From Alphaproteobacteria bacterium (lineage in GTDB: Bacteria; Pseudomonadota; Alphaproteobacteria; UBA11073): a stretch of DNA of 64,000 bases. A program made the position numbers and the translations under genes. This document shows positions 6,418 through 31,449 of this stretch, in pieces (position 1 is the stretch's first letter; each line of letters starts with the position of its first letter). Location: positions 90,796 through 154,795 of the forward strand of contig CBDFFW010000001.1 in NCBI GenBank assembly GCA_965246945.1, given 5' to 3'. The notes beneath the pieces were generated by a model. The model searched no databases. It was given only the letters and a program-made list of their open reading frames with translations, and was not told the DNA's origin.

Positions 6418-6501
6418 GGTCCCATGGCGGAATGGTAGACGCTCACGACTTAAAATCGTGTGCCGATAGGCGTCCCGGTTCAAGTCCGGGTGGGACCACC
6501 A
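6418..6501 (+). tRNA. tRNA-Leu (anticodon UAA), type II with a long variable arm
   Basis: The acceptor stem is ggtccca/tgggacc. The anticodon loop is cttaaaa. The T-arm is cccgg-ttcaagt-ccggg. A discriminator A and an encoded CCA are present. Confidence 0.85.
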
Positions 6502-10081: not shown

Positions 10082-10503
10082 ATGAGCCGCTTGCATATTC
10101 ATTCTGAAAACCATCTGGTTAAGCGCATAGGATGGTTAAGGCAGCCGTACTGGGTGCCAATGACGGCATCATTTCGGTCGCCAGTTTAATTATTGGGGTG
10201 GCTTCCGCTTCAACCGAACATAATCAAATTTTAATTGCCGGTGTGGCTGGGATTGCCGCCGGTGCCATGTCGATGGCAGCAGGCGAATATGTTTCGGTCA
10301 GCTCGCAATCTGATACTGAGCAAGCAGATTTGGCACGTGAACGTAAAGAACTAGCCGAAATGCCTGAAGCCGAATTGAATGAGTTAACTAAAATATACAT
10401 GGATCGCGGGCTGGAGGAGCCATTGGCGCGAGAAGTTGCCACCCAATTGATGAAAAGAGATGCATTAATCTCCTCTTTGGCGGCCACTTCCATTTTAAGC
10501 TGA
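10082..10503 (+). pseudogene. VIT1/CCC1-family iron/manganese transporter pseudogene (a 1-bp frameshift near 10131 plus C-terminal truncation)
   Basis: The frame from ATG 10082 gives MSRLHIHSENHLVKRIGWLRQ. The +1 frame from 10132 gives the conserved VIT continuation AAVLGANDGIISVASLIIGV...AGEYVSVSSQSD. Restoring one G in the run 'ggttaagg(g)cag' would join the two frames into the canonical GWLRAAVLGANDG. The ORF stops after about 120 residues of VIT domain, so the C-terminal TM half is missing. Confidence 0.6.
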
Positions 10504-10574: not shown

Positions 10575-10964
10575 TTGAGCATTTACCTTTTTCTATGGTT
10601 ACCGCAAGTTTTATGGCTGCATGTCATTTCGGATGCCATTATTGCGCTTTCTTATTACTCCATTCCGCTAACGATCTTATATTTTATTCGCAAACGCCGC
10701 GATCTGCCATTTCCTTATTTGTTTTATTTATTTGGTGCATTTATTCTTTTTTGCGGCACTACACATCTGATGGAAATCTGGGTGATCTGGCAACCCGATT
10801 ATCCGGAGGAAGGCCTTATGAAGGCCTTAACGGCCATGGTTTCCATATGTGCCGCTATTATCACCTGGAAAATTGTCCCTGTAGCACTGCAGTTAAGAAG
10901 CCCAGCAGAATTGGAAACAATGCCCATGCGGCATAAAATCAGCCGTGTCAAAAAAATGGTTTAG
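10575..10964 (+). CDS. Ethylene-binding-domain protein (ETR1-type copper/ethylene-binding transmembrane domain) without any output domain; possibly truncated
   Basis: 129 aa. ISDAIIALSYYSIPLTILYF...FGAFILFCGTTHLMEIW aligns closely with Arabidopsis ETR1 ISDFFIAIAYFSIPLELIYF...FGAFIVLCGATHLINLW. That alignment includes the Cu-ligand Cys and His (CGxTH). Three TM helices are followed by a short helical tail and then a stop. Confidence 0.6.
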   Translation: MSIYLFLWLPQVLWLHVISDAIIALSYYSIPLTILYFIRKRRDLPFPYLFYLFGAFILFCGTTHLMEIWVIWQPDYPEEGLMKALTAMVSICAAIITWKIVPVALQLRSPAELETMPMRHKISRVKKMV

Positions 10965-11725: not shown

Positions 11726-14683
11726 ATGACAAAATCAGAATGTCCATTTATGCCGCAAGGCGCGACCAAACATGGGTTTGATCTTTTTCGTTATACTTTG
11801 GAAAAGCCAGACCGTGATCTGTTCGATGCTTGGCAGGATACTGTAACTACTGAGGCGCAAAAAGAACTTTATGATATATTATCAACCGAAGCACGTTTAA
11901 AAGTAGCTCAAATTGTGCATGTTTATGGTTTTTATAATTCACAATTAATCGCAAAAGCGCATCGTGAAGCAATTAAATTGCGGCAGGATAATGATGATCT
12001 GCCAGGCCAGACGATCGCTGGTGCTATTCAACGTGCTGCAGAAATGGGTTTAACAGCCGAGCAGATGAAAGAAGTTTTGTTGCGGCAAATTGCTTTATCT
12101 TTAACGGCGCATCCAACTCAATATAATTTACCTGAGCATGTACAGGCACGACAAGTTTTGGCTAAAGCAATACAAAAAGACGATCCCTCTAAGGACGAGA
12201 TCACAGAAGCGCTAAGTCTACTTTTAAATACGCCAGCTGGATTTGCTGAAAAAAAGATCCCGCAACAGGAATTGTTAGAAAATCTTGAGCATGCAACGAA
12301 TTTATTTTGGGTACTGCCTGGTCTACTTGATAGCGTTCGAAAATCGTTAGACATTGTGCATAGACAATTTCCTAACAATGGTTACGGCTATATTTTCACT
12401 GGTATCGAACCAGACATAAAATCAATTGTATTGCGCTTATGGCCGTGTGTAGACCGCGATGGCAATCCAGCGATTACAACGATGGTTACCACACTGGGTA
12501 TTGCCCAAAGCCAAGAAAAAATAGTTGATTTATATATAAATTCTATTGATTACATTTGTAAATTGAATGGCGATAAAGCACCGCGCAAAGTTACTTTCGA
12601 CAGATTACAGCGATTGAAACAAGCTTTAATCGACGGATCAATTTCGCCAAAAAATGATGCGGATATGGAGAAATTTGGTTTATTGCTAACAACTTGTTTA
12701 AAAGTGGAAGATGGGGATGAAGCATCAAAGCAACTACGCTGGCTAGATATGCGGGCACGTGTTTTCCGGTGGCATTTAGGTAAGTTTCAACCACGCCAGG
12801 AAGCAGGTGCCCATACCCAAGCGGTAGCCGCTATTGGTCCGCTTTTGCAGTTCGAAAATGGTTTCGAAGATACTGCTTATAATGCAAATATGCCCCAACC
12901 AGAAAAGCAGCAACAACTGCAAAAAATATTGGCCGCAATAAAGAATGCCAATATTGGTACTTTAGATCGTCTTAATAAAACTATCAGCGATCAATTATCT
13001 ATTGTAAGCCCTCAAATTTATAAGAACTACACTATTTTTAATCTCATAAGCGAAAACCCTGCGCATTTTTGCGATTACATTATTTCAAACGCCGGTAAGC
13101 CAAGCGATGTGTTGGAAGTTCTGGTATTGGCCAAGCTGGCTGGAGCTGAACAGACAATAAATATTCGTATGCTTTGTGAGACGTTGACTGATTTAAAGGC
13201 CATGCCACAAACCCTTGAAACGCTTTTGGCAATTCCTGAATATCGCGATTTCATCAAGCAAAATCACAATAATCGTTTACCTGTTATGATTGCGCTTTCA
13301 GATACTCAGCGCCAACACGGCCCAGCTATTATTTTCGATCAAATCTTAACGATGGTTGATTTATGTAAAGTTGCTTTAAAGCATGAGATCGAGCTCGAAA
13401 TTATGTGGGGTGGCTCTGATGATTTATACCGTGGTGGCGGTGATATTTCGATGTATCCTTATTACCTGGCCCGCAGCATTGTGGGTTATGCGGCAACCAC
13501 TAATCAAAAACTGAGCAAACTGGCAGCGTGCGTAAGAGAAGTTTCGTTTACGCTTCAAGGCCGGCAAGTGGAAGATGTGATTGGCAATACTGCATCTGCT
13601 TGGCGTCTGGGCGAGCGTATGTTTGCTGCCGCAACCAACTTTTATAGCTTTCTACGCGGCGAACACACAGCACAATTTCAGTTAGATTTGGCAGAAGAAT
13701 ATCAAGCCAATGAAGCTGCACGCGATGCCTTGCAGCCCTGCATGCGTGCCTATGAATTCATGCGCGGACCTTTGCTTGACACATTAAGTTTAGCTGTAGT
13801 GCCTGCTGCCGCAGTTAAAAAGTTAAACACTTCTTCTAGGCCAGACAAACGGCCAACGGTTATTGGCAATCCAGACCCACGTGAAATTGATGCATTGCCA
13901 TTAACTGATACCCGCGCCATTACCAACCAGTTTGCGGTGCAATTACCTGGATTAGAAATAAACGGTTGGTTTGGTTTAACCCAATTGGCTGACCTTGATG
14001 CCCGAATTGTTCAAAACTCTCCCATTCTACAGGAAATGCTTAAACGTGCGCTTATCTGTTTAGAACGCACATATCTTGAAAAAGTTTGGATGTTTTCTGG
14101 ACTTACACCACCTGCTTCCTGCATAGCCGCTTTGTACGATACCGCATTCAATCAGGTTTGGCAGCGGGAATTGCAACTTAGTATCAATGGCAAGCTAGAT
14201 CAAACCAATAAGCTCATACAATTTGATTTTAACAAATATATGCCCGTTGTATTGCAGCAATTGGATTTGGATGATACGTTAATAAATCGTCAGACTGTTT
14301 TATTAACCTGGCTTGAAGCAGAATATAAGCGTACGGAAAAAGTAGTTTGTCGGAAGTTTTTTAATAATCCCAAATTTAGTTCTCAATCCGCACGTGAAGC
14401 AGTAAAAACTTTTCCACGTTTATCTGAAGAACTTGTTTTGCAGAAAAGAAATATTGCGCCTATGCAAACATGGCTGGCAATGGCCACTACAGAATTGTAC
14501 CAAACGCCTCAGCCGACCCAAGCGCAACTTACTGCCCTGCAGGCTTTTGCCCAGGTAATTGCTGAAGGCACGCGTACGCCTAATGCTTACATTAACCACA
14601 CGCCCGGCTTTGAGCCAGACATGCGCAAAGTTAGTGATCATTTAAGTAAATTTGGCCCCAAAACATTCGCTGTTACTATTTAA
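11726..14683 (+). CDS. Divergent phosphoenolpyruvate carboxylase (PEPC)-like protein with substituted catalytic motifs; AT-rich
   Basis: 985 aa. It is colinear with E. coli Ppc through several signature blocks. LTAHPTQ matches [17 protein letters not shown] matches [31 protein letters not shown] matches [29 protein letters not shown] matches [21 protein letters not shown] corresponds to [32 protein letters not shown] corresponds to IELTLFHGRGGSIGRGGAP, with the His and the first Arg replaced. The C-terminus ends at ...FAVTI and lacks the conserved ...AGIAAGMRNTG tail. Confidence 0.7.
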   Translation: [985 protein letters not shown]

Positions 14684-14695
14684 TTCAACATTTCC

Positions 14696-15538
14696 TCAAC
14701 ATTTAAGTCTTTTTAGCACAAATTCTTCGAATGAATTTATCGCGGCATTATCGGCACGGTGTTTCAATAGTGAAACATGCGTAGCCTCCAACGCGGGTAA
14801 TAATTTTGTGCGCAAGGCATTTAATTGATCTGGAATCATAGTTAACGGTAAAACGGTAATTCCCAAACCGGCTTTAACAGCGGCAATTGTACCAGCATAA
14901 CTGGGACTAGAGAAGACCAGCCGCCATTTCAATCCAGCCCTTTCAAGCGATTGGAGGGCGCTGGACCGGTAGACACAAGGTTGCGGCGCAACTACCAAGG
15001 GAATAGGCCTGCCAGACTCCACCAAATTCATATCGCCTACCCATTCCAAGGGTTCAGACCACACTTCAACGCCATTTGGAAAATTCTCAGGTTGGTTCAT
15101 TTTCACCAGTACCAGATCAAACTTTTTTTGTTTGAAGCGCTGGAATAAATTTAAAGTTAAATCGCACTCCACATTTACCAATATGCGTGGATGAATGCGC
15201 GCGAACTCCACCAAAATATCTGATAAAAAGACGCTGGCAAAATTCTCTGGTAAGCCAAACCGTACTTCACCATGTAATTCCGGCTCTTTAAATCGATCTA
15301 ATGCTTCTCGATGCAAGGCGAAAATCTGCCGCGCATAGCTGCGAAAAATCTCGCCTTCGGCAGTTAAAGCAAAAGCTTTGCCACGTGTGAATAACTGTTT
15401 GCCAAGCAACTCTTCAAGTTTAGCAATTTGCTGACTAACAGCGGATTGCGTGCGGCCCACACGTTCAGCTGCTTTGGTGAAGCTAGCAGTTTCCGCCACA
15501 GCTAAAAAGGTCTGCAAAGTGATGGTATCGATAGTCAT
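14696..15538 (-). CDS. LysR-family transcriptional regulator, divergently transcribed from dabB
   Basis: 280 aa. N-terminal HTH (LQTFLAVAETASFTKAAERVGRTQSAVSQQIAKLEELLG) plus a substrate-binding domain. Convergent with the PEPC-like gene, with a 12-nt gap. Confidence 0.8.
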   Translation of the reverse strand: MTIDTITLQTFLAVAETASFTKAAERVGRTQSAVSQQIAKLEELLGKQLFTRGKAFALTAEGEIFRSYARQIFALHREALDRFKEPELHGEVRFGLPENFASVFLSDILVEFARIHPRILVNVECDLTLNLFQRFKQKKFDLVLVKMNQPENFPNGVEVWSEPLEWVGDMNLVESGRPIPLVVAPQPCVYRSSALQSLERAGLKWRLVFSSPSYAGTIAAVKAGLGITVLPLTMIPDQLNALRTKLLPALEATHVSLLKHRADNAAINSFEEFVLKRLKC

Positions 15539-15641
15539 TAGATTTTCTAATTTAGGATATAAGAATTATCCGTTTCACTTATCTAAATAATACTAATAGC
15601 TTGGTCAATAGAAATTAACATTTCTATGCCAAGGAGCAAAT
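15539..15641. promoter_or_regulatory. Divergent lysR/dabB intergenic control region (putative LysR-box-like AT dyads; RBS aaggag at 15630-15635)
   Basis: 103-bp AT-rich spacer containing ATAAGAATTAT / TTATC...TAAATAAT dyad-like elements. A canonical Shine-Dalgarno lies 7 nt before the dabB ATG. Confidence 0.35.
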
Positions 15642-16970
15642 ATGCTATCATCACTATTCCATATTGATCGGCTTGCCATCATTATGCTGGCTTTAATTGG
15701 TGCTATTGGCCTAATCATTTGGCAATTTTCACGGCGTTATTTGCAGGGCGATCAATTATATCGTGTTTTTTTCCAGCGGCTCGCATGTTTATTGGCATCA
15801 TTGGCATCATTGGTCATTACCGATAACCTAATTGTATTTTTAATCAGCTGGGGATTGGCCAATTATTGGTTGGTAAAATTGATGGTTCACAAGTCGGAAT
15901 GGTCTGCCGCCAAAGCGGCGGGGGAATTAACAGGTAAATCGCTTGGCCTGGGTTTTGCCAGCCTAGTTGCTGGCTTTACCTTGCTTTATTGGCTAACCGG
16001 CACGGCTTCTATTCAAGCGATTTTGCTGCACAATAATCAACACCCGGCTTTGCTGCTTGCCCTTGGATTAATTTTATTTACCGCCCTCATCCAATCAGCG
16101 ATTTGGCCTTTTTCCGGCTGGTTGAAAAATTCGCTTAATTCACCAACCCCTGTTTCGGCCATCATGCATGCCGGTCTGGTGAATGGGGGCGGTTTTTTAC
16201 TGGTACGTTTTGCGCCGCTTTATCTGCAACAGCCGTTGCTGCTCCAAATCATTTTTGTGCTTGGCATTACCAGCGCGGTGATTGGCACGTTATGGAAACT
16301 GCTGCAGCCGGATATTAAGCGGATGCTGGCTTGTTCGACCATGGCGCAAATGGGTTTTATGCTGGCGCAATGCGGCCTTGGTTTATTCCCGGCGGCAGTG
16401 GCCCATCTGTGCTGGCATGGCCTGTTCAAAGCCTATTTGTTTTTAGGCGCAGGTGGCGCGGCCCAGGAAAAGCGCTTGCCGATTATCCATCCGAATAGCT
16501 TTACCGCTTTTGCTTTGGCGCTGCTCTGCGGCTTACTTGGCAGTTATGGCTTTGCATTGGCCAGCCAACATGCATGGCTGGCGCCCAATAGCATATTGGT
16601 ACTGCAAGCGGTGGCTTCAATAGCTGCTGCGCAACTCGCGCTCACCCTGCTGCAAAATAAGCCATGGCAACGGCTGCCGCTGGCCGTTTTATTATGCGCC
16701 ATCGCTGGTGGTATGTATGGCGGCACCGTTGGCTTGGTTGAGCAAGTAATGGCACCGCTGCAAATTTTCCAACCGCAATCACTAAATGCTCTGCATATCA
16801 GTGCCATCGTTATCCTGGCCGCTGGTTGGCTCGGCATGTTGTTTAGCCAGCAGCTTGGCCGCCTAACCCAGCAGCCGTTTTTCTTACGCGGTTATGTGCT
16901 GGCGCTAAATGCAAGTCAGCCAAGCCCCGCTACCATCACCGCCCACCGCAACCATTATCGCTTAGGATAA
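15642..16970 (+). CDS. dabB: DabB/MpsA-like proton-conducting membrane transporter (NuoL/MrpA/NDH-5 family, PF00361-like)
   Basis: 442 aa polytopic membrane protein. Complex I antiporter-like subunit motifs are present (SPTPVSAIMHAGLVNGGGFLL; STMAQMGFML; HLCWHGLFKAYLFLGAG). It is immediately followed by a DUF2309 gene. Confidence 0.75.
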   Translation: MLSSLFHIDRLAIIMLALIGAIGLIIWQFSRRYLQGDQLYRVFFQRLACLLASLASLVITDNLIVFLISWGLANYWLVKLMVHKSEWSAAKAAGELTGKSLGLGFASLVAGFTLLYWLTGTASIQAILLHNNQHPALLLALGLILFTALIQSAIWPFSGWLKNSLNSPTPVSAIMHAGLVNGGGFLLVRFAPLYLQQPLLLQIIFVLGITSAVIGTLWKLLQPDIKRMLACSTMAQMGFMLAQCGLGLFPAAVAHLCWHGLFKAYLFLGAGGAAQEKRLPIIHPNSFTAFALALLCGLLGSYGFALASQHAWLAPNSILVLQAVASIAAAQLALTLLQNKPWQRLPLAVLLCAIAGGMYGGTVGLVEQVMAPLQIFQPQSLNALHISAIVILAAGWLGMLFSQQLGRLTQQPFFLRGYVLALNASQPSPATITAHRNHYRLG

Positions 16971-16973
16971 ATC

Positions 16974-19208
16974 ATGCAAACTGCCCTGAAAACCAAAGTT
17001 GTTGAAGTGACTGAAAACCCAGCCTACGACCTCGGCGAAGCGATTGCGACGGCTTGGAATTATATTGCGCCGTTCTGGCCGCTGAAAAACTTAATTGCCT
17101 GTAATCCCTTGCAAGGCCTAGAAGATTTACCTTTTGAGCAAGCGTTAAATAAAGGCATCGTGCTGTTTCAGCGCGCTGATCTGCCATCACCGCTGCTGGC
17201 TGTTAATCGCCAAACCATCAAATGGTGTCAGGTATTGTTTGACGATGGACAGGCGAGTTTAACCATGCCGCTGCGCGAACAGGGGTTTTTCGCCGCCTGG
17301 CGGCAATTGGCGGTGTTCGATGCACAGCTGCATCAAAATAATCAATTTCATAAAATGTGGTTGAACCGCCTGCCGCTTTCGGCTGAACAAACCATTGCGG
17401 AATGTTTGGTGAAATTGAATATTCCAGCAGCACAACACGAAACGTTTTTAACTTTATTATTAACCACCTTGCCTGGCTGGGCGGCTTATGCCAAATACCG
17501 TCTGAATTGGGAGCCAGATCAAGCGAATGCCACTTGCCCCATCCGCTCGGCTGATTATCTGGCAGTGCGCTTGGTTATCACCACCCTGCTATGGCCGGAT
17601 GCGGCAGAGTTATTGGTGGAACAAGATAATATTTCACCAGCAACTGATATCTTGGCCACCATCACTACCAAAGAAACAGCTTACCGCCAGGATTTATTGG
17701 CGAATTTGAAGCGGCAAGCGGCTGCCCCGCCAACTATCCGCCCAGCCGCACAAATGATATTCTGCATCGATGTGCGTTCCGAACCAATGCGCCGGGCGAT
17801 AGAAGGGCAGGGTGACTATGAAACCTTTGGCTTCGCAGGCTTTTTTGGCCTGCCGATAAGCTTGCAAAATGAAAAAACGGGCGAACGCTATGCATCCTGC
17901 CCAGTTTTGCTGCAACCTAAGTATCATTTGTCCGAAACCAGTTGCACTAGTGGGGATTGTGCTTCAGATAATGCGAACAGTAAGGCGCGTTTGCGTTTGT
18001 ATAAAAGTTTCTATCAGGCATTGAAATATCATTTTACGACCCCGTTCGCGCTGGTTGAAACGTTAGGCTTATGGGCCGGTTTGTGGATGGGTTTGCGCAC
18101 ACTGGCGCCGCAGACAGCTATTCAATTAAAGACCAACATTGTTAAAAAAATCAGGCCTGAAGTGCAAACCCAATTTGATATTGCGGGCAGCATCCCCTTT
18201 GCCGATCAATGTACTATGGCTGGCGGCGCCTTGCGTATGATGGGGTTAACCCAAAATTTCGCGCCACTAGTCGTTCTATGCGGCCATGGCAGTACCACGC
18301 AAAACAACGCTTATGCCACGGCCTTGGATTGCGGCGCGTGCGGCGGACGGCATGGCGGGAGCAATGCGCGTATTTTGGCGGCGATTTTGAACCATCAAAT
18401 GGTCCGGGTAGCTTTGGTGCAAGACGGTATTGTCATTCCGGCCGATACGCATTTTATCGCCGCGCAGCATGATACCACCACGGATGCGATTAACTTGTTA
18501 GTCGATGACGAATTATTAGGTGATCATCGCAACCAGGTCAGCACGTTACACGCAGCATTATCCCAAGCACAACACACCAATCAGCGAGTGCGCGCCGCAC
18601 AAATGAATACAGAGCTTGATCATATTCAATTGCGTAGCTGTGACTGGGCCCAAACCCGCCCGGAATGGGGCTTGGCACGCAATGCGGCGTTTATTGTTGG
18701 GCCACGTAGTTTAACTGCAACATTAAATTTAGCGGGCCGTAGTTTTCTGCATTCCTATGACTGGCAGCAAGATGCTAATAGTACAGCGCTTACTACCATT
18801 TTAACCGCGCCGATGGTGGTTGCCCAATGGATTAATAGCCAGTATTTATTTTCCAGCTTGGATAATGTGGCTTATGGCAGCGGCAGCAAAATTACCCAAA
18901 ATGTCACTGGCAAAATGGGGATTATGCAGGGCAATGCCAGCGACTTAATGCATGGTTTGCCCCTGCAATCGGTTTACTCCAACGACAACAAACCTTATCA
19001 CCAGCTGCAACGGTTGCTAACCGTGGTTTACGCGCCCAAAGCGAAAATTGATAAAATTATCGCCGCGCAGCCCGTTTTACAAAAACTATTCGGCAATGGC
19101 TGGGTGCAATTGGTTTGCCTTGAACCAGCCAGCAAACTGGCCTATCAGCTGCAGCGTGATTTCACTTGGGAGAAATTAGTAGGTGAGCATGTCATGCTAT
19201 GCGGGTAG
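16974..19208 (+). CDS. dabA: DabA/MpsB-like DUF2309 protein (beta-carbonic-anhydrase-like component of the DAB inorganic-carbon uptake system)
   Basis: 744 aa. It starts 4 nt after the dabB stop. It contains a beta-CA-like CxDxR motif (IFCIDVRSEP) and an H...C cluster (CGHGSTTQNNAYATALDCGACGG). Length and arrangement match DUF2309 partners of NuoL-like proteins. Confidence 0.75.
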   Translation: MQTALKTKVVEVTENPAYDLGEAIATAWNYIAPFWPLKNLIACNPLQGLEDLPFEQALNKGIVLFQRADLPSPLLAVNRQTIKWCQVLFDDGQASLTMPLREQGFFAAWRQLAVFDAQLHQNNQFHKMWLNRLPLSAEQTIAECLVKLNIPAAQHETFLTLLLTTLPGWAAYAKYRLNWEPDQANATCPIRSADYLAVRLVITTLLWPDAAELLVEQDNISPATDILATITTKETAYRQDLLANLKRQAAAPPTIRPAAQMIFCIDVRSEPMRRAIEGQGDYETFGFAGFFGLPISLQNEKTGERYASCPVLLQPKYHLSETSCTSGDCASDNANSKARLRLYKSFYQALKYHFTTPFALVETLGLWAGLWMGLRTLAPQTAIQLKTNIVKKIRPEVQTQFDIAGSIPFADQCTMAGGALRMMGLTQNFAPLVVLCGHGSTTQNNAYATALDCGACGGRHGGSNARILAAILNHQMVRVALVQDGIVIPADTHFIAAQHDTTTDAINLLVDDELLGDHRNQVSTLHAALSQAQHTNQRVRAAQMNTELDHIQLRSCDWAQTRPEWGLARNAAFIVGPRSLTATLNLAGRSFLHSYDWQQDANSTALTTILTAPMVVAQWINSQYLFSSLDNVAYGSGSKITQNVTGKMGIMQGNASDLMHGLPLQSVYSNDNKPYHQLQRLLTVVYAPKAKIDKIIAAQPVLQKLFGNGWVQLVCLEPASKLAYQLQRDFTWEKLVGEHVMLCG

Positions 19209-20037
19209 ACAGATCTTGTTGCCTACCCAGCATCAAAAAGCGATGGCACTAGCGCCAGCATTCAAAAATGTTTTGGACGCTGAGATTGCCGAAATTATCA
19301 TTGATACCGATCAATTCGGTACTTTTTCAGGCGAGGTTGAACGACCAGGTGATGCACAGGCTTGCGCCAAGCTTAAATGTGAAGCAGCGTTGGCTATCAC
19401 GGATACACCTTACGCTGTCGCCAGCGAAGGCAGTTTTGGTCCGCATCCCGTTATTCCAATATTGGCTTGCAACCATGAACTGCTATATTTTATTGATCAC
19501 GAAAATGACTTTCACTTGTCTTTAACCAAGCTATGCACAGATACCAATTACCGCATGGCAACGGTTGAGAATGTTGATCAGCTACATACTTTTGCCAAAC
19601 AAACTTATTTTACTTCGCATGCTTTGATGATCAGGCCCAATATCTGGGCTGACCAAAAGATTATTTTCAAAGGTCTCCAAACATATGAGGCCCTCCATCA
19701 AGCTTTTATAGTTGCTTGCCAAAATTCTGGTGATGGGCAGGCTTTCGTCCAAACCGAAATGCGTGCTCACTTCAATCCAACCCGCATGCGAAATATTGCC
19801 AAATTGGCAGGAGATTTGGCTAAACGGTTATGTTCAATTTGCCCTGTTTGCCAAACACCCGGTTGGGGCAAGATTGCCATCAAAACTGGCTTGCCCTGTA
19901 GCTGGTGCCAAACCAAAACCAACCTTGTAAAAAATGAAATATGGGGTTGCGCCAAGTGTGATTATCAGGAAGCGAAAGAACGATTAGATGGTTTGCGAGC
20001 TGCCGAGCCGACTTATTGTCCCAGCTGTAATCCTTAA
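19183..20037 (+). CDS. Hypothetical protein with a C-terminal double CxxC zinc-ribbon, translationally coupled to dabA (start uncertain: 19183, 19189 or 19243)
   Basis: 284 aa ORF overlapping the dabA stop by 26 nt. The C-terminus reads CSICPVCQTPGW...CSWCQT...CAKCDY...CPSCNP, which gives 4 to 5 CxxC pairs. Confidence 0.5.
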   Translation: MSMSCYAGRQILLPTQHQKAMALAPAFKNVLDAEIAEIIIDTDQFGTFSGEVERPGDAQACAKLKCEAALAITDTPYAVASEGSFGPHPVIPILACNHELLYFIDHENDFHLSLTKLCTDTNYRMATVENVDQLHTFAKQTYFTSHALMIRPNIWADQKIIFKGLQTYEALHQAFIVACQNSGDGQAFVQTEMRAHFNPTRMRNIAKLAGDLAKRLCSICPVCQTPGWGKIAIKTGLPCSWCQTKTNLVKNEIWGCAKCDYQEAKERLDGLRAAEPTYCPSCNP

Positions 20038-20348: not shown

Positions 20349-20975
20349 TCAGGCTTGGTTGCGAATCTGTCCATATTTGGTCTGCTTAATTTTTAGGATA
20401 ACATCGGCCAGCCAACCTGGCACCTGGGAAACGGTAGAAGTTAAATCTTTCAGATCCTGATCATCCAGCCGATTGGCACATTGCTGGATGGTTTGCGCAT
20501 CAATACTGCCTTTACCGAGACAAGATAGGGCCTGCAGGGTAAAATTGGCATTGGTGGAAATGCGATCCATCAAAGGCACCCTGGCATGTTTGAAGGTGAT
20601 GGTGCGGCCAGCCATGTGTTTAGTTTTGGAAATGCCATTAGTCAGATAAACAGGCTTTGCTGGCACCTGGGTGGATAATCCCAGGATATTAGCAGACGCA
20701 GCACCAGAAGGAAAAACCATAGCGCCGGTTTTAGTGGCGATGATTTGCGCCAAATCATCAGCGCTGGGGGATAGGGTGCCAAGGGTTGGGTGTTGCTTAG
20801 GGTAATCGTAAATACCACGCCCCAAGCGCCGGATGGTACCATTCTTTGCCAACCGTGCGAATGTTTGATCGACAGCGGCACGCGTGCCAACATCTAAAAA
20901 GTCTTTGGGCGTAAACACCCAGCCACGCCGTTTGGCGTGGATTCTTTGGGTAATCGTGGCGGTAACGTCGTACAT
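20349..20975 (-). CDS. DUF6088 / AbiEi-family (type IV TA antitoxin-like) protein, apparently orphan
   Basis: 208 aa. The N-terminal pattern RGWVFTPKDFLDVGTRAAVDQTFARLAKNGTIRRLGRGIYDYP and the central LGLSTQVP motif match the DUF6088/AbiEi_4 family from memory. No AbiEii-like nucleotidyltransferase ORF is adjacent. Confidence 0.6.
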   Translation of the reverse strand: MYDVTATITQRIHAKRRGWVFTPKDFLDVGTRAAVDQTFARLAKNGTIRRLGRGIYDYPKQHPTLGTLSPSADDLAQIIATKTGAMVFPSGAASANILGLSTQVPAKPVYLTNGISKTKHMAGRTITFKHARVPLMDRISTNANFTLQALSCLGKGSIDAQTIQQCANRLDDQDLKDLTSTVSQVPGWLADVILKIKQTKYGQIRNQA

Positions 20976-21230: not shown

Positions 21231-21285
21231 ACTTAAAATCGTGTGCTGTTATGGCGTCCCGGTTCAAGTCCGGGTGGGACCACCA
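21231..21285 (+). repeat. Partial tRNA-Leu copy (anticodon loop through CCA), a direct repeat of 6448-6501. Putative distal att site of the island.
   Basis: acttaaaatcgtgtgc ... cgtcccggttcaagtccgggtgggaccacca is identical to the tRNA-Leu 3' part, apart from the variable-loop segment (tgttatgg versus cgatagg). It has no 5' half, so it is not a functional tRNA. Confidence 0.7.
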
Positions 21286-28032: not shown

Positions 28033-29514
28033 TTGTCAGGGTTTTCAGATATGTCTAATAATTCTCGCGCTAAAGCAGCGCCCAAAAAAAAAGTGAGTCA
28101 ATCCCGTGCTGCGGCCAAACCCGTCAGCGCCAAATCAGTTAGTAAGGCGACCGCTAAAAAACCCGTTGCCAAAGCACCGGTTAAAACAGCGAACCAGAAG
28201 TCAGTAAAAGCTGTCGCCAAACCAGTTGCCGCCAAAAAAGCCACCGCTAAAACGGTTGCTAAACAAATCGCTAAAAAACCAGCAGTTGTTTCTAAAAAAG
28301 CGCCCGTTAAAATGGTCGCTAAGCCTATTGCGAAAAAGTCAGCGCCAGCGAAGATTGCAGCCAAAAAAACTGTTGCACCCACCAAAACAGTTAGTAAAAC
28401 AACAGTTAAGCCCGTGGCCAAAACCAATAGCAAAATGCCGGCAAAACCGGCTAATGCAGCAAAATCCTCAACCAAAGCAGCCGTTAAGCCAGCCAGCAAA
28501 ACGCCTGTGAAGACAGTGGCAAAAGCGCCAGTAAAAGCAATTACCAAGGCACCCGCCAAAGCTGTGGCCAAAGCACCCGTAAAACCGGTAACCAAACCCG
28601 TATCAAAAAAAGCAACGGCGAAGCCAGTTAATACGCCAACCAAAACGGCAGCCAAACCCGCGTCAGTTAAACTAGCTGCTCAAGCAACACCAGTGGTGGC
28701 CAATAACAATCAACCAGTGATTGAAAAAGCAGCCGCACCCGCTAAGCCGAAAGCAACCAGCAAAAGCAAAGCGGCGGCACTGAAACTCAGCACTAAAGAA
28801 AAACGCACGCTCGTGCGAATTGCCAATGCCAATGTCACAGCCGTGGCCGATAGCAGCACGCGCACCATGATGTCGGCCGTGCAAATGGCATTGCAAGCCA
28901 CACTAAACCGTATTTCCGCCAATGCGCCGGCAGCAGCCAATGACGATGCACAAAATGCGAAAACAGCCGCCAAAGCTGCGGCCGAGCCCGCCGATATCAA
29001 ATCACCTTTCAAAATGGGCGATATGGTGGTTTACCCTGCCCACGGCGTTGGTAAAATTGAAGCGGTTGAGATCCAAAAAATTGGCGAACAAGAATTACGC
29101 CTGTTCAAAATTCATTTTGAACATGAACGCATGACCCTGCGCGTGCCGGTCATGCGCGCCACCGGTTCCGGTTTGCGCAAATTGGCATCGGGCGAATTGC
29201 TGGATAAAGCGTTTGAAACCATGCGCGGCCGCCCGCGTATCCGCCGCGTGATGTGGAGCCGCCGCGCCCAGGAATATGAAGCCAAAATTAATTCCGGTGA
29301 TCCGATTTCGATTGCGGAAGTATTGCGCGATTTGCGCCGTAATGCGGAGCAAGGCGAACAGTCTTACAGCGAACGCCAAATTTTCCAATCGGCCTTGGAA
29401 CGTTTTGCACGCGAACTCGCCGCCATTGAAAAAATCGCCCAAGATGAAGCGGTTAAAAAATTAGAAAGCCTATTAATTCGCGCCGCACAAAGCGGCAACA
29501 GCTCGGCTGCCTAA
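28033..29514 (+). CDS. CdnL/CarD-family RNA-polymerase-binding regulator fused to a ~320-aa N-terminal histone-H1-like Lys/Ala/Pro-rich repeat tail
   Basis: One continuous 493-aa ORF. Residues 1 to about 320 are AKKPVAKAPVK-type degenerate repeats. The last ~166 aa, from MGDMVVYPAHGVGKIEAVEIQKIGEQELRLFKIHF at nt 29017, are a canonical CarD_CdnL N-domain plus the CdnL C-domain. No SD-like sequence precedes the internal Met. Confidence 0.65.
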   Translation: MSGFSDMSNNSRAKAAPKKKVSQSRAAAKPVSAKSVSKATAKKPVAKAPVKTANQKSVKAVAKPVAAKKATAKTVAKQIAKKPAVVSKKAPVKMVAKPIAKKSAPAKIAAKKTVAPTKTVSKTTVKPVAKTNSKMPAKPANAAKSSTKAAVKPASKTPVKTVAKAPVKAITKAPAKAVAKAPVKPVTKPVSKKATAKPVNTPTKTAAKPASVKLAAQATPVVANNNQPVIEKAAAPAKPKATSKSKAAALKLSTKEKRTLVRIANANVTAVADSSTRTMMSAVQMALQATLNRISANAPAAANDDAQNAKTAAKAAAEPADIKSPFKMGDMVVYPAHGVGKIEAVEIQKIGEQELRLFKIHFEHERMTLRVPVMRATGSGLRKLASGELLDKAFETMRGRPRIRRVMWSRRAQEYEAKINSGDPISIAEVLRDLRRNAEQGEQSYSERQIFQSALERFARELAAIEKIAQDEAVKKLESLLIRAAQSGNSSAA

Positions 29515-31026: not shown

Positions 31027-31449
31027 TCAAGCAGCTGAAAGCAGCAGATCATTCACCAGCAAAATTTTCTCCGGTGTTTGTGATGAATGGTGGTGGATGA
31101 TTTTCCATATGCCATCGCCGTCATTCAATAATGAGAACGAAAAACGGGCATGCACGTGGCTGCCTTCATTTGCGCTAAAAAATTCATAATCACCCGATAA
31201 AATAACAATATTGCCGCAAGTCAATTTATGCGGCAGGCCATCGCTAAACTGCACCTGAATACCGCGGTCTAATAATGATTTAAAATAGGTTGCGCGGGCT
31301 TGCTGGTTTTCCAGAAACGCCCCCACCATGGTCGGCACCAGCATGGCATGTTCAGCATACAGTGACAGCACGGCCGGAATATCGCCGCGATTTAAGGCGG
31401 CCGCCCAATTTTGCAAGACAGCGCCATACGGATTTTGCCAATCTTTCAT
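31027..31449 (-). CDS. NTF2-like / SnoaL-like (DUF4440-like) small protein; the start is uncertain
   Basis: The ORF is open to 31563. The domain-sized product (~140 aa) begins at MKDWQNPYGAVLQNWAAALNRGD. The fold assignment is tentative. Confidence 0.45.
   Translation of the reverse strand: MKDWQNPYGAVLQNWAAALNRGDIPAVLSLYAEHAMLVPTMVGAFLENQQARATYFKSLLDRGIQVQFSDGLPHKLTCGNIVILSGDYEFFSANEGSHVHARFSFSLLNDGDGIWKIIHHHSSQTPEKILLVNDLLLSAA

Follow-up and report, generated by a model that had tools for sequence, protein, structure and literature searches.

The question raised by the locus described here is whether an energy-coupled pump for inorganic carbon (Ci) of the DAB (DabAB/MpsAB) type is carried by an alphaproteobacterium that does not look autotrophic and, if so, what the third gene of its operon contributes. 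The locus occupies positions 14696 to 20037 of a 64,000-nucleotide stretch of contig CBDFFW010000001.1 (assembly GCA_965246945.1, lineage UBA11073), which as a whole is called the window below. It comprises a LysR-type regulator gene on the minus strand (14696-15538, 280 aa; PF00126 (HTH_1) and PF03466 (LysR_substrate) by Pfam) and, divergent from it on the plus strand, dabB (15642-16970, 442 aa), dabA (16974-19208, 744 aa) and a gene for a DUF6671 protein (19183-20037, 284 aa; PF20376), all four exactly where the original prediction, made from the sequence of the window, had placed them. The locus as a whole is best explained as a horizontally acquired, LysR-controlled DAB cassette with DUF6671 as an accessory or regulatory partner, a reading that we consider likely. 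Its pump is a new member of the known DAB family, of a distinct short, Q-type variety, and the conserved partnership of DUF6671 with DabA, sometimes in fused form, appears to be undescribed.

DabA matched the Pfam family PF10070 (DUF2309) with 748.9 bits (E=8.8e-225, gathering score 25) and the dabB product matched Proton_antipo_M (PF00361) with 135 bits, the two families against which the original prediction had proposed to check the pair. DabA was also aligned to DabA2 (chain 9rd0_A) in the solved structure of the Halothiobacillus neapolitanus DabA2/DabB2 complex (PDB 9rd0), with E=2.5e-110. The catalytic and coupling residues of DAB have been defined by two cryo-electron microscopy preprints of 2026, in which DABs are treated as two- or three-subunit membrane complexes (10.64898/2026.03.13.711513; 10.64898/2026.05.01.722082), and the positions of the corresponding residues and motifs in the window protein were verified by script. 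In the alignment the zinc ligands C351, H524 and C539 of DabA2 correspond to C264, H438 and C453, and the Asp-Arg dyad D353/R355 to D266/R268, so that the Cys/His/Cys set and the dyad are all kept, as the proposed comparison with the Halothiobacillus protein was meant to establish. The CxDxR motif and the His/Cys cluster noted earlier are present as CIDVRSE (264-270), CGHGS (436-440) and DCGACGG (within 444-458) and belong to this fully aligned ligand set. Furthermore, the window protein shares with DabA2 the leucine that stands in place of a bicarbonate-stabilising glutamine (L658 in DabA2, L567 here), the lid motif GI(A/G)GFFG (here GFAGFFG, 286-292), the motif NNPY..ALDCGACGG (here NNAYATALDCGACGG, 444-458) and the motif DWxxxRPEWGL (here DWAQTRPEWGL, 557-567). 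The glutamate of the finger/elbow motif, which inserts into the membrane in DabA2, is matched by eye only, LVETLGL (E362) resembling FVESAGL (E444) of DabA2 at a place where the HMMER alignment is six residues out of register. The window DabA is 83 residues shorter than DabA2, in the N-terminal helical domain.

The membrane subunit is more divergent. DabB aligns to residues 86-447 of DabB2 (9rd0_B), is 109 residues shorter and lacks about 80 N-terminal residues; its reading frame cannot be extended upstream, since only 103 nt lie between dabB and lysR. A crude hydropathy scan gave about 12 hydrophobic segments, compared with the 15-helix architecture of DabB2. Of the proton-path residues, H260 (here H176) and the triad H339/H343/K347 of transmembrane helix (TM) 11 (here H255/H259/K263) are kept, whereas the TM7-TM5 pair K235/D185 is replaced by Q151/F105. 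The glutamine is common to a whole clade that includes Chromulinivorax, Rickettsiales, Paracaedibacteraceae, Prosthecobacter and Legionella, and about ten lineages of this Q-type clade also have the shortened N-terminus, so that this is a maintained variant and not decay. Alanine mutants of the Asp-Lys pair of DAB2 still complement carbonic anhydrase (CA)-deficient E. coli, with a growth yield 30-60% lower (10.64898/2026.03.13.711513; 10.64898/2026.05.01.722082), and F105/Q151 therefore marks a variant and does not bar membership in the family. The Pfam score, the zinc and dyad set, the DAB-specific motifs and the adjacent PF00361 partner bear out the proposed DAB/MpsAB assignment, and as far as sequence can tell the pair is a genuine DAB/MpsAB-type system with a distinct "short, Q-type" DabB. 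It resembles DAB2 in its two-gene PF00361 and PF10070 unit and differs in its heterotrophic host, its divergent LysR gene and its overlapping DUF6671 gene, the latter two being absent from DAB2.

The genes of the operon are tightly packed. Only 3 nt separate the stop codon of dabB from the ATG of dabA, with an AGGA within the end of dabB; the adjacency had been described correctly, the spacing as 4 nt. The DUF6671 gene starts within dabA: its GTG at 19183, with a GGGAGA 8 nt upstream, gives the 26-nt overlap that had been reported, and an alternative ATG at 19189, the start used in a database copy (P0001, 282 aa), gives an overlap of 20 nt. Both the 3-nt gap and the overlap agree with the operon proposed for dabB, dabA and the third gene, and the latter is predicted to be translationally coupled to dabA, its start lying inside the end of that gene.

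The third gene had been described as a zinc-ribbon gene. The ribbon is there, with eight cysteines in four CxxC pairs (C218/221, 237/240, 254/257 and 277/280) that are invariant in 78 homologues, but the gene as a whole encodes a full-length DUF6671 protein (PF20376, 186.5 bits against a threshold of 23.8, residues 65-284), preceded by 60 conserved N-terminal residues outside the Pfam model. Mean column identity among the homologues is 63-66%, and the invariant residues cluster in TxHxK, DTDxLGTFSGExxR, SEGSFGPHP, TDMRAHxNPxR and the eight cysteines. A hydropathy scan found no hydrophobic segment, which indicates a soluble protein. The AlphaFold2 model (predicted local distance difference test score 92.7, predicted template modelling score 0.85) has an alpha/beta domain over residues 1-215, after which come zinc ribbons built of small beta-hairpins. 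In a Foldseek search of the PDB, the N-terminal domain best matched YjjX, Ham1, an inosine triphosphate pyrophosphatase (ITPase), and Maf (E 2.4e-4 to 1e-2, probability 0.99-1.0, query-normalised template modelling (TM) score 0.27-0.28, identity 8-18%), proteins from which the C-terminal double ribbon is absent. This resemblance of a predicted model is weak, and we take it as a lead, not as membership. The family is large, with 2,076 clusters at 50% identity (E<=1e-3, among 1.84 billion representatives), and is found in at least ten phyla; its carriers include cyanobacteria, Legionella, rhizobia, methanotrophs and numerous bacteria that live inside cells. Within the literature library that could be searched, "DUF6671" is mentioned by no paper.

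Three-gene pumps with a different third product are known. In DAB1 (DabABC; Thermocrinis albus and H. neapolitanus) the third product is required or associated, but DabC is a half-NuoM-like integral membrane protein (10.64898/2026.03.13.711513; 10.64898/2026.05.01.722082), whereas DUF6671 is soluble, has an unrelated fold and carries zinc ribbons; DabC was rejected as the identity of the third gene, whose product matches PF20376 and has no hydrophobic segment. In Staphylococcus aureus, MpsAB, a DAB homologue that gives a non-autotroph its bicarbonate, likewise has a third gene downstream. However, mpsC, which encodes a hypothetical protein, occurs only in staphylococci, is preceded by a weak terminator and can be dispensed with (PMC6689103), whereas the DUF6671 gene overlaps dabA, occurs together with DabA in many phyla and is fused to it in some lineages. 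MpsC was also rejected, on the PF20376 match and by comparison with its published description, the sequences themselves not being compared.

The partnership with DabA is carried by genomic context. The DUF6671 alignment was scanned against one genome per GTDB species, which gave more than 600 places; the best 80 and a Chromulinivorax locus, 81 loci in all, were analysed by tblastn and clustering of the neighbours within 5 kb, and cluster identities were confirmed with Pfam. Within this distance we found a LysR homologue in 29 loci, DabA in 26, DabB in 23, components of Cmp/Nrt-like ABC transporters in 14, SbtA in 13, isocitrate dehydrogenase in 11, PII-like proteins and a PyrC-like amidohydrolase in nine each, Sua5/TsaC in five and PurK in four (with PurE in three of these). 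In 16 of the 26 DabA-linked loci the end of DabA lies at most 30 nt from the start of DUF6671, and the adjacency recurs in Alpha- and Gammaproteobacteria, Verrucomicrobia, Dependentiae, Actinomycetota and Melainabacteria; the whole DabB-DabA-DUF6671 trio is also present in Chromulinivorax (Dependentiae). Four Legionella loci (L052, L069, L071 and L075) have the order LysR-DabB-DabA-PII-like-DUF6671, followed in two by PurE-PurK. In four loci (L010, L013, L014 and L031) a small secreted protein (c13) comes after SbtA, and in two more a PII-like SbtB does. Among 72,556 plasmids, DabA was found in 126 and DUF6671 in 12 records, at least seven of which carry both. Gene orders on these replicons include LysR-DabB-DabA-CysD-DUF6671 with overlapping genes (Mesorhizobium terrae), SbtA adjoining DUF6671 (Arthrobacter) and TerC-DUF6671-PyrC downstream of NhaR (Pseudomonas). 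Moreover, two in-frame DabA::DUF6671 fusions were found (L012, 1035 aa, and P0373, 1029 aa), each joining its two parts by about 30 linker residues. Their mutual identity is only 62%, which excludes an assembly error and means that the fusion was maintained through substantial divergence. An apparent 830-aa fusion (L061) was discarded as an artefact of reading-frame extension in high-G+C DNA, which leaves these two as the only true fusions.

From adjacency, co-occurrence on plasmids and fusion taken together, it is very likely that DUF6671 and DabA are functionally linked, and these observations also point to a wider tie to the handling of inorganic carbon and bicarbonate; the link is probably also physical. 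That DUF6671 is a true functional partner has, in our judgement, a clearly better than even chance of being right.

A CysD-like gene (3'-phosphoadenosine 5'-phosphosulfate reductase/ATP-pyrophosphatase family) lies repeatedly, and without CysN, between dabA and DUF6671 in frames that overlap both (L034, L057, the M. terrae plasmid L085 and plasmid NZ_CP045499).

The divergent LysR gene described in the original prediction is borne out by a 103-nt intergenic region with a conserved T-N11-A dyad. This LysR-type box, ATTAGATTTTCTAAT (ATTAG-N5-CTAAT), was read from the sequence at 15537-15551, overlapping the start codon of lysR. Further towards dabB, a second dyad, ATAAG-N14-CTTAT (15559-15582), is a putative activation site, and a conserved -10-like hexamer, CTAATA (15593-15598), may belong to the dabB promoter. 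When 12 intergenic regions from alphaproteobacterial, gammaproteobacterial and verrucomicrobial loci are aligned, both dyads and the hexamer prove conserved. Because consensus promoter and terminator scans of the operon did no better than on shuffled sequence and are thus uninformative, the regulatory case rests on this conservation across phyla. Orthologues of the regulator, 60-75% identical and better conserved than DabA, lie divergently upstream of dabB in loci of Paracaedibacteraceae, Rickettsiales, Legionella and Prosthecobacter. To judge from this conservation, regulator, operator and operon evidently moved between phyla as one cassette. The arrangement had been likened to that of CbbR: the divergent gene order and the T-N11-A box fit, but membership in the CbbR family was rejected, since the CbbR model of NCBIfam scored 52 bits (cut-off 450) and the best match, LrhA with 150 bits, was itself below its cut-off of 530.

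Horizontal acquisition is also indicated by the borders of the surrounding DNA. A complete tRNA-Leu(UAA) gene was found by ARAGORN and Rfam at 6418-6501 on the plus strand, and its 3' part (6448-6501) is repeated, on the same strand, as a 55-nt partial tRNA-Leu (anticodon arm to 3' end) at 21231-21285; the two att-like copies are 14.78 kb apart. The G+C content is about 0.39-0.45 over most of the region from 6 to 26 kb and 0.47-0.51 over dabB and dabA, the flanks having about 0.49-0.54. Synteny with the contig of a close relative (L082) extends from 33.6 kb of the window down to 21.37 kb (21371), where it ends at a LexA-like gene, about 90 nt from the right repeat; beyond this point the relative has unrelated genes. 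The original prediction had placed the module on a tRNA-flanked island. On the repeat, the low G+C content and the synteny break, the claim of a putative 14.8-kb island bounded by tRNA-Leu holds, but the tRNA-Pro (41172) was rejected as its right boundary in favour of the tRNA-Leu copy. Besides the DAB cassette, the island carries genes for a CRP-like regulator, a YkuD transpeptidase, a DUF6629 protein, a VIT1 fragment, an ETR1_N-domain protein and a phosphoenolpyruvate carboxylase (PEPC)-like protein. The last island gene, on the minus strand at 20349-20975, encodes an orphan DUF6088/AbiEi-like protein of antitoxin type (PF19570, 118 bits, and a weak AbiEi_4 match), and no open reading frame for an AbiEii toxin partner was found beside it.

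Under the reading favoured here, the four-gene cassette would have been acquired horizontally on this island, inserted at tRNA-Leu. The LysR regulator would bind the T-N11-A dyad in the divergent region and control dabB-dabA-DUF6671, presumably by sensing inorganic-carbon status. DabB as a NuoL-like cation channel and DabA with its buried Cys2His-Zn site of the beta-CA type would together form a vectorial carbonic anhydrase, in which CO2 diffusing into the cell is converted to HCO3- at the zinc site, while cations running down their membrane gradient through DabB pay for the reaction and keep it from reversing, the scheme put forward for DAB1 and DAB2. In a heterotrophic, small-genome host, carboxylating enzymes would draw on this bicarbonate, a candidate being the adjoining divergent PEPC-like enzyme. 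DUF6671 would associate physically with DabA, and in other genomes with other Ci importers, as an accessory or regulatory subunit through which a nucleotide signal would be tied to Ci uptake. In its general form the proposal makes DUF6671 a widespread soluble partner of Ci uptake (DAB, SbtA and Cmp-type ABC transporters) that docks by its double zinc ribbon and senses or hydrolyses a nucleotide with its YjjX/ITPase-like domain, which would set it beside the PII-like SbtB as a regulator or subunit of Ci uptake of a new class. To this general form we give somewhat less than an even chance; the more specific model of a nucleotide-sensing regulator we consider doubtful.

The parallel with SbtB and other PII-like partners lies in a small soluble protein encoded beside a Ci importer and in the analogy with nucleotide-sensing regulators. 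SbtB binds nucleotides. Unlike DUF6671, with its zinc ribbon and a fold that weakly resembles YjjX/ITPase, it is a trimer of the PII ferredoxin-like fold, and since the Legionella loci show that a PII-like gene can share one operon with DUF6671, lying between it and dabA, the two are not simple substitutes.

Several observations weigh against the favoured reading. The fold match of DUF6671 is weak (top hit E=2.4e-4, TM-score 0.43 per target and 0.28 per query, 16% identity), and no sequence profile ties the protein to a solved or named family: there was no match in NCBIfam, Pfam at E values up to 10 gave zinc-ribbon echoes only, and a DUF6671 profile found nothing significant among PDB sequences. 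At least one Ci-linked neighbour is present in 62 of the 81 loci, a category that was defined after the data had been seen and, but for Chromulinivorax, on the 80 loci most like the query; the other 19 have none. Most DabA plasmids lack DUF6671 (126 records with DabA, 12 with DUF6671), from which it follows that DABs in general do not need it. Coupling in this DabB could differ, since some 80 residues are missing from its N-terminus and it has lost the TM5/TM7 Asp-Lys pair that has a part in DAB2 activity; that this clade pumps Ci at all, and with which ion, we infer from sequence. Finally, no integrase or remnant of one was found at either end of the island, so that the element would be either degraded or mobilised in trans.

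Among the alternatives, the one that survives best is that DUF6671 is a nucleotide-metabolism enzyme that needs, or is harmed by, bicarbonate or CO2 and is co-transcribed with whichever Ci supply system is local; it might, for example, hydrolyse a carboxylated or otherwise non-canonical nucleotide, or assist PurK, Sua5 or reactions that depend on carbamoyl phosphate. Its fold resembles the house-cleaning nucleoside triphosphate pyrophosphatases YjjX, Ham1 and Maf, its invariant polar set (T13, H15, K17, D41, E49, R52, E80, H86, D103, N120, H144, D190, R192 and R199) would suit such a role, and in several phyla it adjoins PurE-PurK, Sua5, PyrC-like, CysD-like and FolC genes. However, no substrate can be named and the fold match is the weak one given above, while the maintained fusion to DabA and the tight translational coupling favour a physical complex. 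We consider this enzyme reading unlikely.

A second alternative concerns the pump itself. The Q-type DabBA might serve mainly in cation or pH homeostasis, or use Na+ in place of H+, with bicarbonate supply being secondary, as was first proposed for MpsAB of S. aureus. The replacement of the TM7 lysine and the TM5 aspartate by glutamine and phenylalanine throughout the clade is in line with this, as is the finding that MpsAB complements Na+-transporter mutants and DAB2 does not (10.64898/2026.03.13.711513; 10.64898/2026.05.01.722082); moreover, some DUF6671 loci lie beside NhaR, TerC or cation/H+ antiporter genes. Against it, DabA shows strong conservation of its whole CA active site and of its coupling motifs, the essential histidine and the His-His-Lys triad are kept in DabB, and DAB2 remains able to complement CA-deficient E. 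coli, at the reduced yield given above, when its Asp-Lys pair is mutated. A primary role in cation transport thus appears improbable.

That DUF6671 is an unrelated passenger travelling with dabBA has a precedent in S. aureus mpsC, which proved to be dispensable and outside MpsAB function (PMC6689103), and agrees with the many plasmid DabA loci that lack it. This reading is already disfavoured, and we regard it as very improbable, in view of the adjacency across many phyla, the overlapping reading frames, the two divergent in-frame fusions and the recurrence of DUF6671 beside SbtA and Cmp-like ABC transporters, Ci importers that are not homologous to DAB. Equally remote is a cysteine-rich zinc-handling factor for zinc enzymes such as DabA and dihydroorotase, which would make the neighbourhood one of metal economy and not of carbon: the eight invariant cysteines, the presence of zinc enzymes (DabA and the PyrC-like amidohydrolase) and TerC-type metal exporters among the neighbours, and the iota-CA-like proteins, of a class reported as zinc-independent, that accompany SbtA-DUF6671 could be read in this way, but the four CxxC pairs are spaced as in structural zinc ribbons and echo only these in Pfam, SbtA, the Cmp-like transporters, PII, PurK and Sua5 are not zinc proteins, and no Zur-type context was seen.

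With the DAB cassette and its DUF6671 partner as the preferred reading, the host and the neighbouring genes can be considered. GltX of the window is about 56% identical to its counterparts in Alphaproteobacteria (Rhodospirillales, Candidatus Nucleicultrix) and 86% and 67% identical to two metagenomic proteins; the window also contains flagellar, TolB, ComEC, transketolase and glyceraldehyde-3-phosphate dehydrogenase genes, and no Calvin-cycle or carboxysome genes were found in it. On these relatives and this gene content, an alphaproteobacterial, non-autotroph-looking host is a reasonable assignment. The original prediction had called a DAB in such a host unusual. The context stands, but it is not unusual in itself, since DABs in heterotrophs and pathogens (Legionella, Vibrio, Bacillus) and their horizontal transfer were documented when the family was defined (PMC6689103).

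The PEPC-like gene (11726-14683, plus strand, 985 aa), predicted earlier as a neighbouring PEPC paralogue, is confirmed as PEPC-like by its PF00311 match (136 bits). A paralogue elsewhere on the same 1.79-Mb contig (P0132, 1048 aa), 39% identical to it, is its sole close relative among 5.8 billion proteins. It is highly divergent: the NCBIfam PEPC model scored 129 against a cut-off of 815, and ordinary PEPCs are at most 27% identical. All the same, the catalytic positions that are invariant in 12 canonical PEPCs are all present in it: TAHPT (H129), DRDGNP (243-248), R357, E485, D526, RGGG (569-572), R705/P706/R709 and RAI (730-732). It is plausibly an active, bicarbonate-using carboxylase that would make metabolic sense beside a bicarbonate pump, and the two paralogues may represent PEPCs that evolve fast or have shifted in function, in an alphaproteobacterium associated with a host. 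As a part of the module the gene was rejected, none of the 81 DUF6671 loci compared carrying it, and the pairing is unique to this genome.

Some further features of the window were noted. Inside the island, a truncated VIT1 iron-transporter fragment (10132-10503, plus strand) covers only the first 117 of 214 profile positions and is followed by a 129-aa protein consisting of an ethylene-receptor-type ETR1_N domain (10575-10964, plus strand, 135 bits). FlgK-FlgL, directly beside ComEC in the relative (L082, 1-4600), are 15 kb from it in the window (33.6-48.7 kb), separated by a block that includes tRNA-Pro and genes for TolB, PrmA, tetratricopeptide-repeat methyltransferase and glycosyltransferase; here the two genomes differ by a second rearrangement or insertion. 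A CarD-family protein (28033-29514, plus strand; CarD_TRCF_RID and CarD_C at residues 326-477) has an N-terminal extension of about 320 residues with a histone-H1-like Lys/Ala/Pro-rich repeat (AKKPVAK...), which accounts for an AT skew of about +0.2 between 27 and 30 kb. A 140-aa protein of the SnoaL_3/CaMKII_AD family (31027-31449, minus strand), encoded about 11 kb away from the DAB operon, ends in ...WKIIHHHSSQTP. HHHSS is the signature reported for iota-class CAs (PMC7191908, PMC8395977), and because of this C-terminal signature the genome may also encode a candidate iota-CA. The c13 proteins that follow SbtA in the SbtA-DUF6671 loci are related to it; the member in L010 matches the same CaMKII_AD/SnoaL families, and that in L031 carries an HHSS motif and has no Pfam match.

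DAB pumps attract study both as minimal CO2-concentrating modules that can be transplanted and as factors in the fitness of pathogens. If the proposed partnership is true, a soluble partner of DabA would be a missing regulatory or catalytic layer of these pumps, and it would give the first functional handle on DUF6671, a domain without known function. The Legionella loci offer a genetically tractable setting both for DUF6671 and for a link between bicarbonate supply and purine synthesis, and the clade with a short, Q-type DabB is a natural experiment on which parts of a NuoL-like channel are needed for coupling. It is the DUF6671 partnership, more than the DAB itself, that makes this locus worth pursuing.

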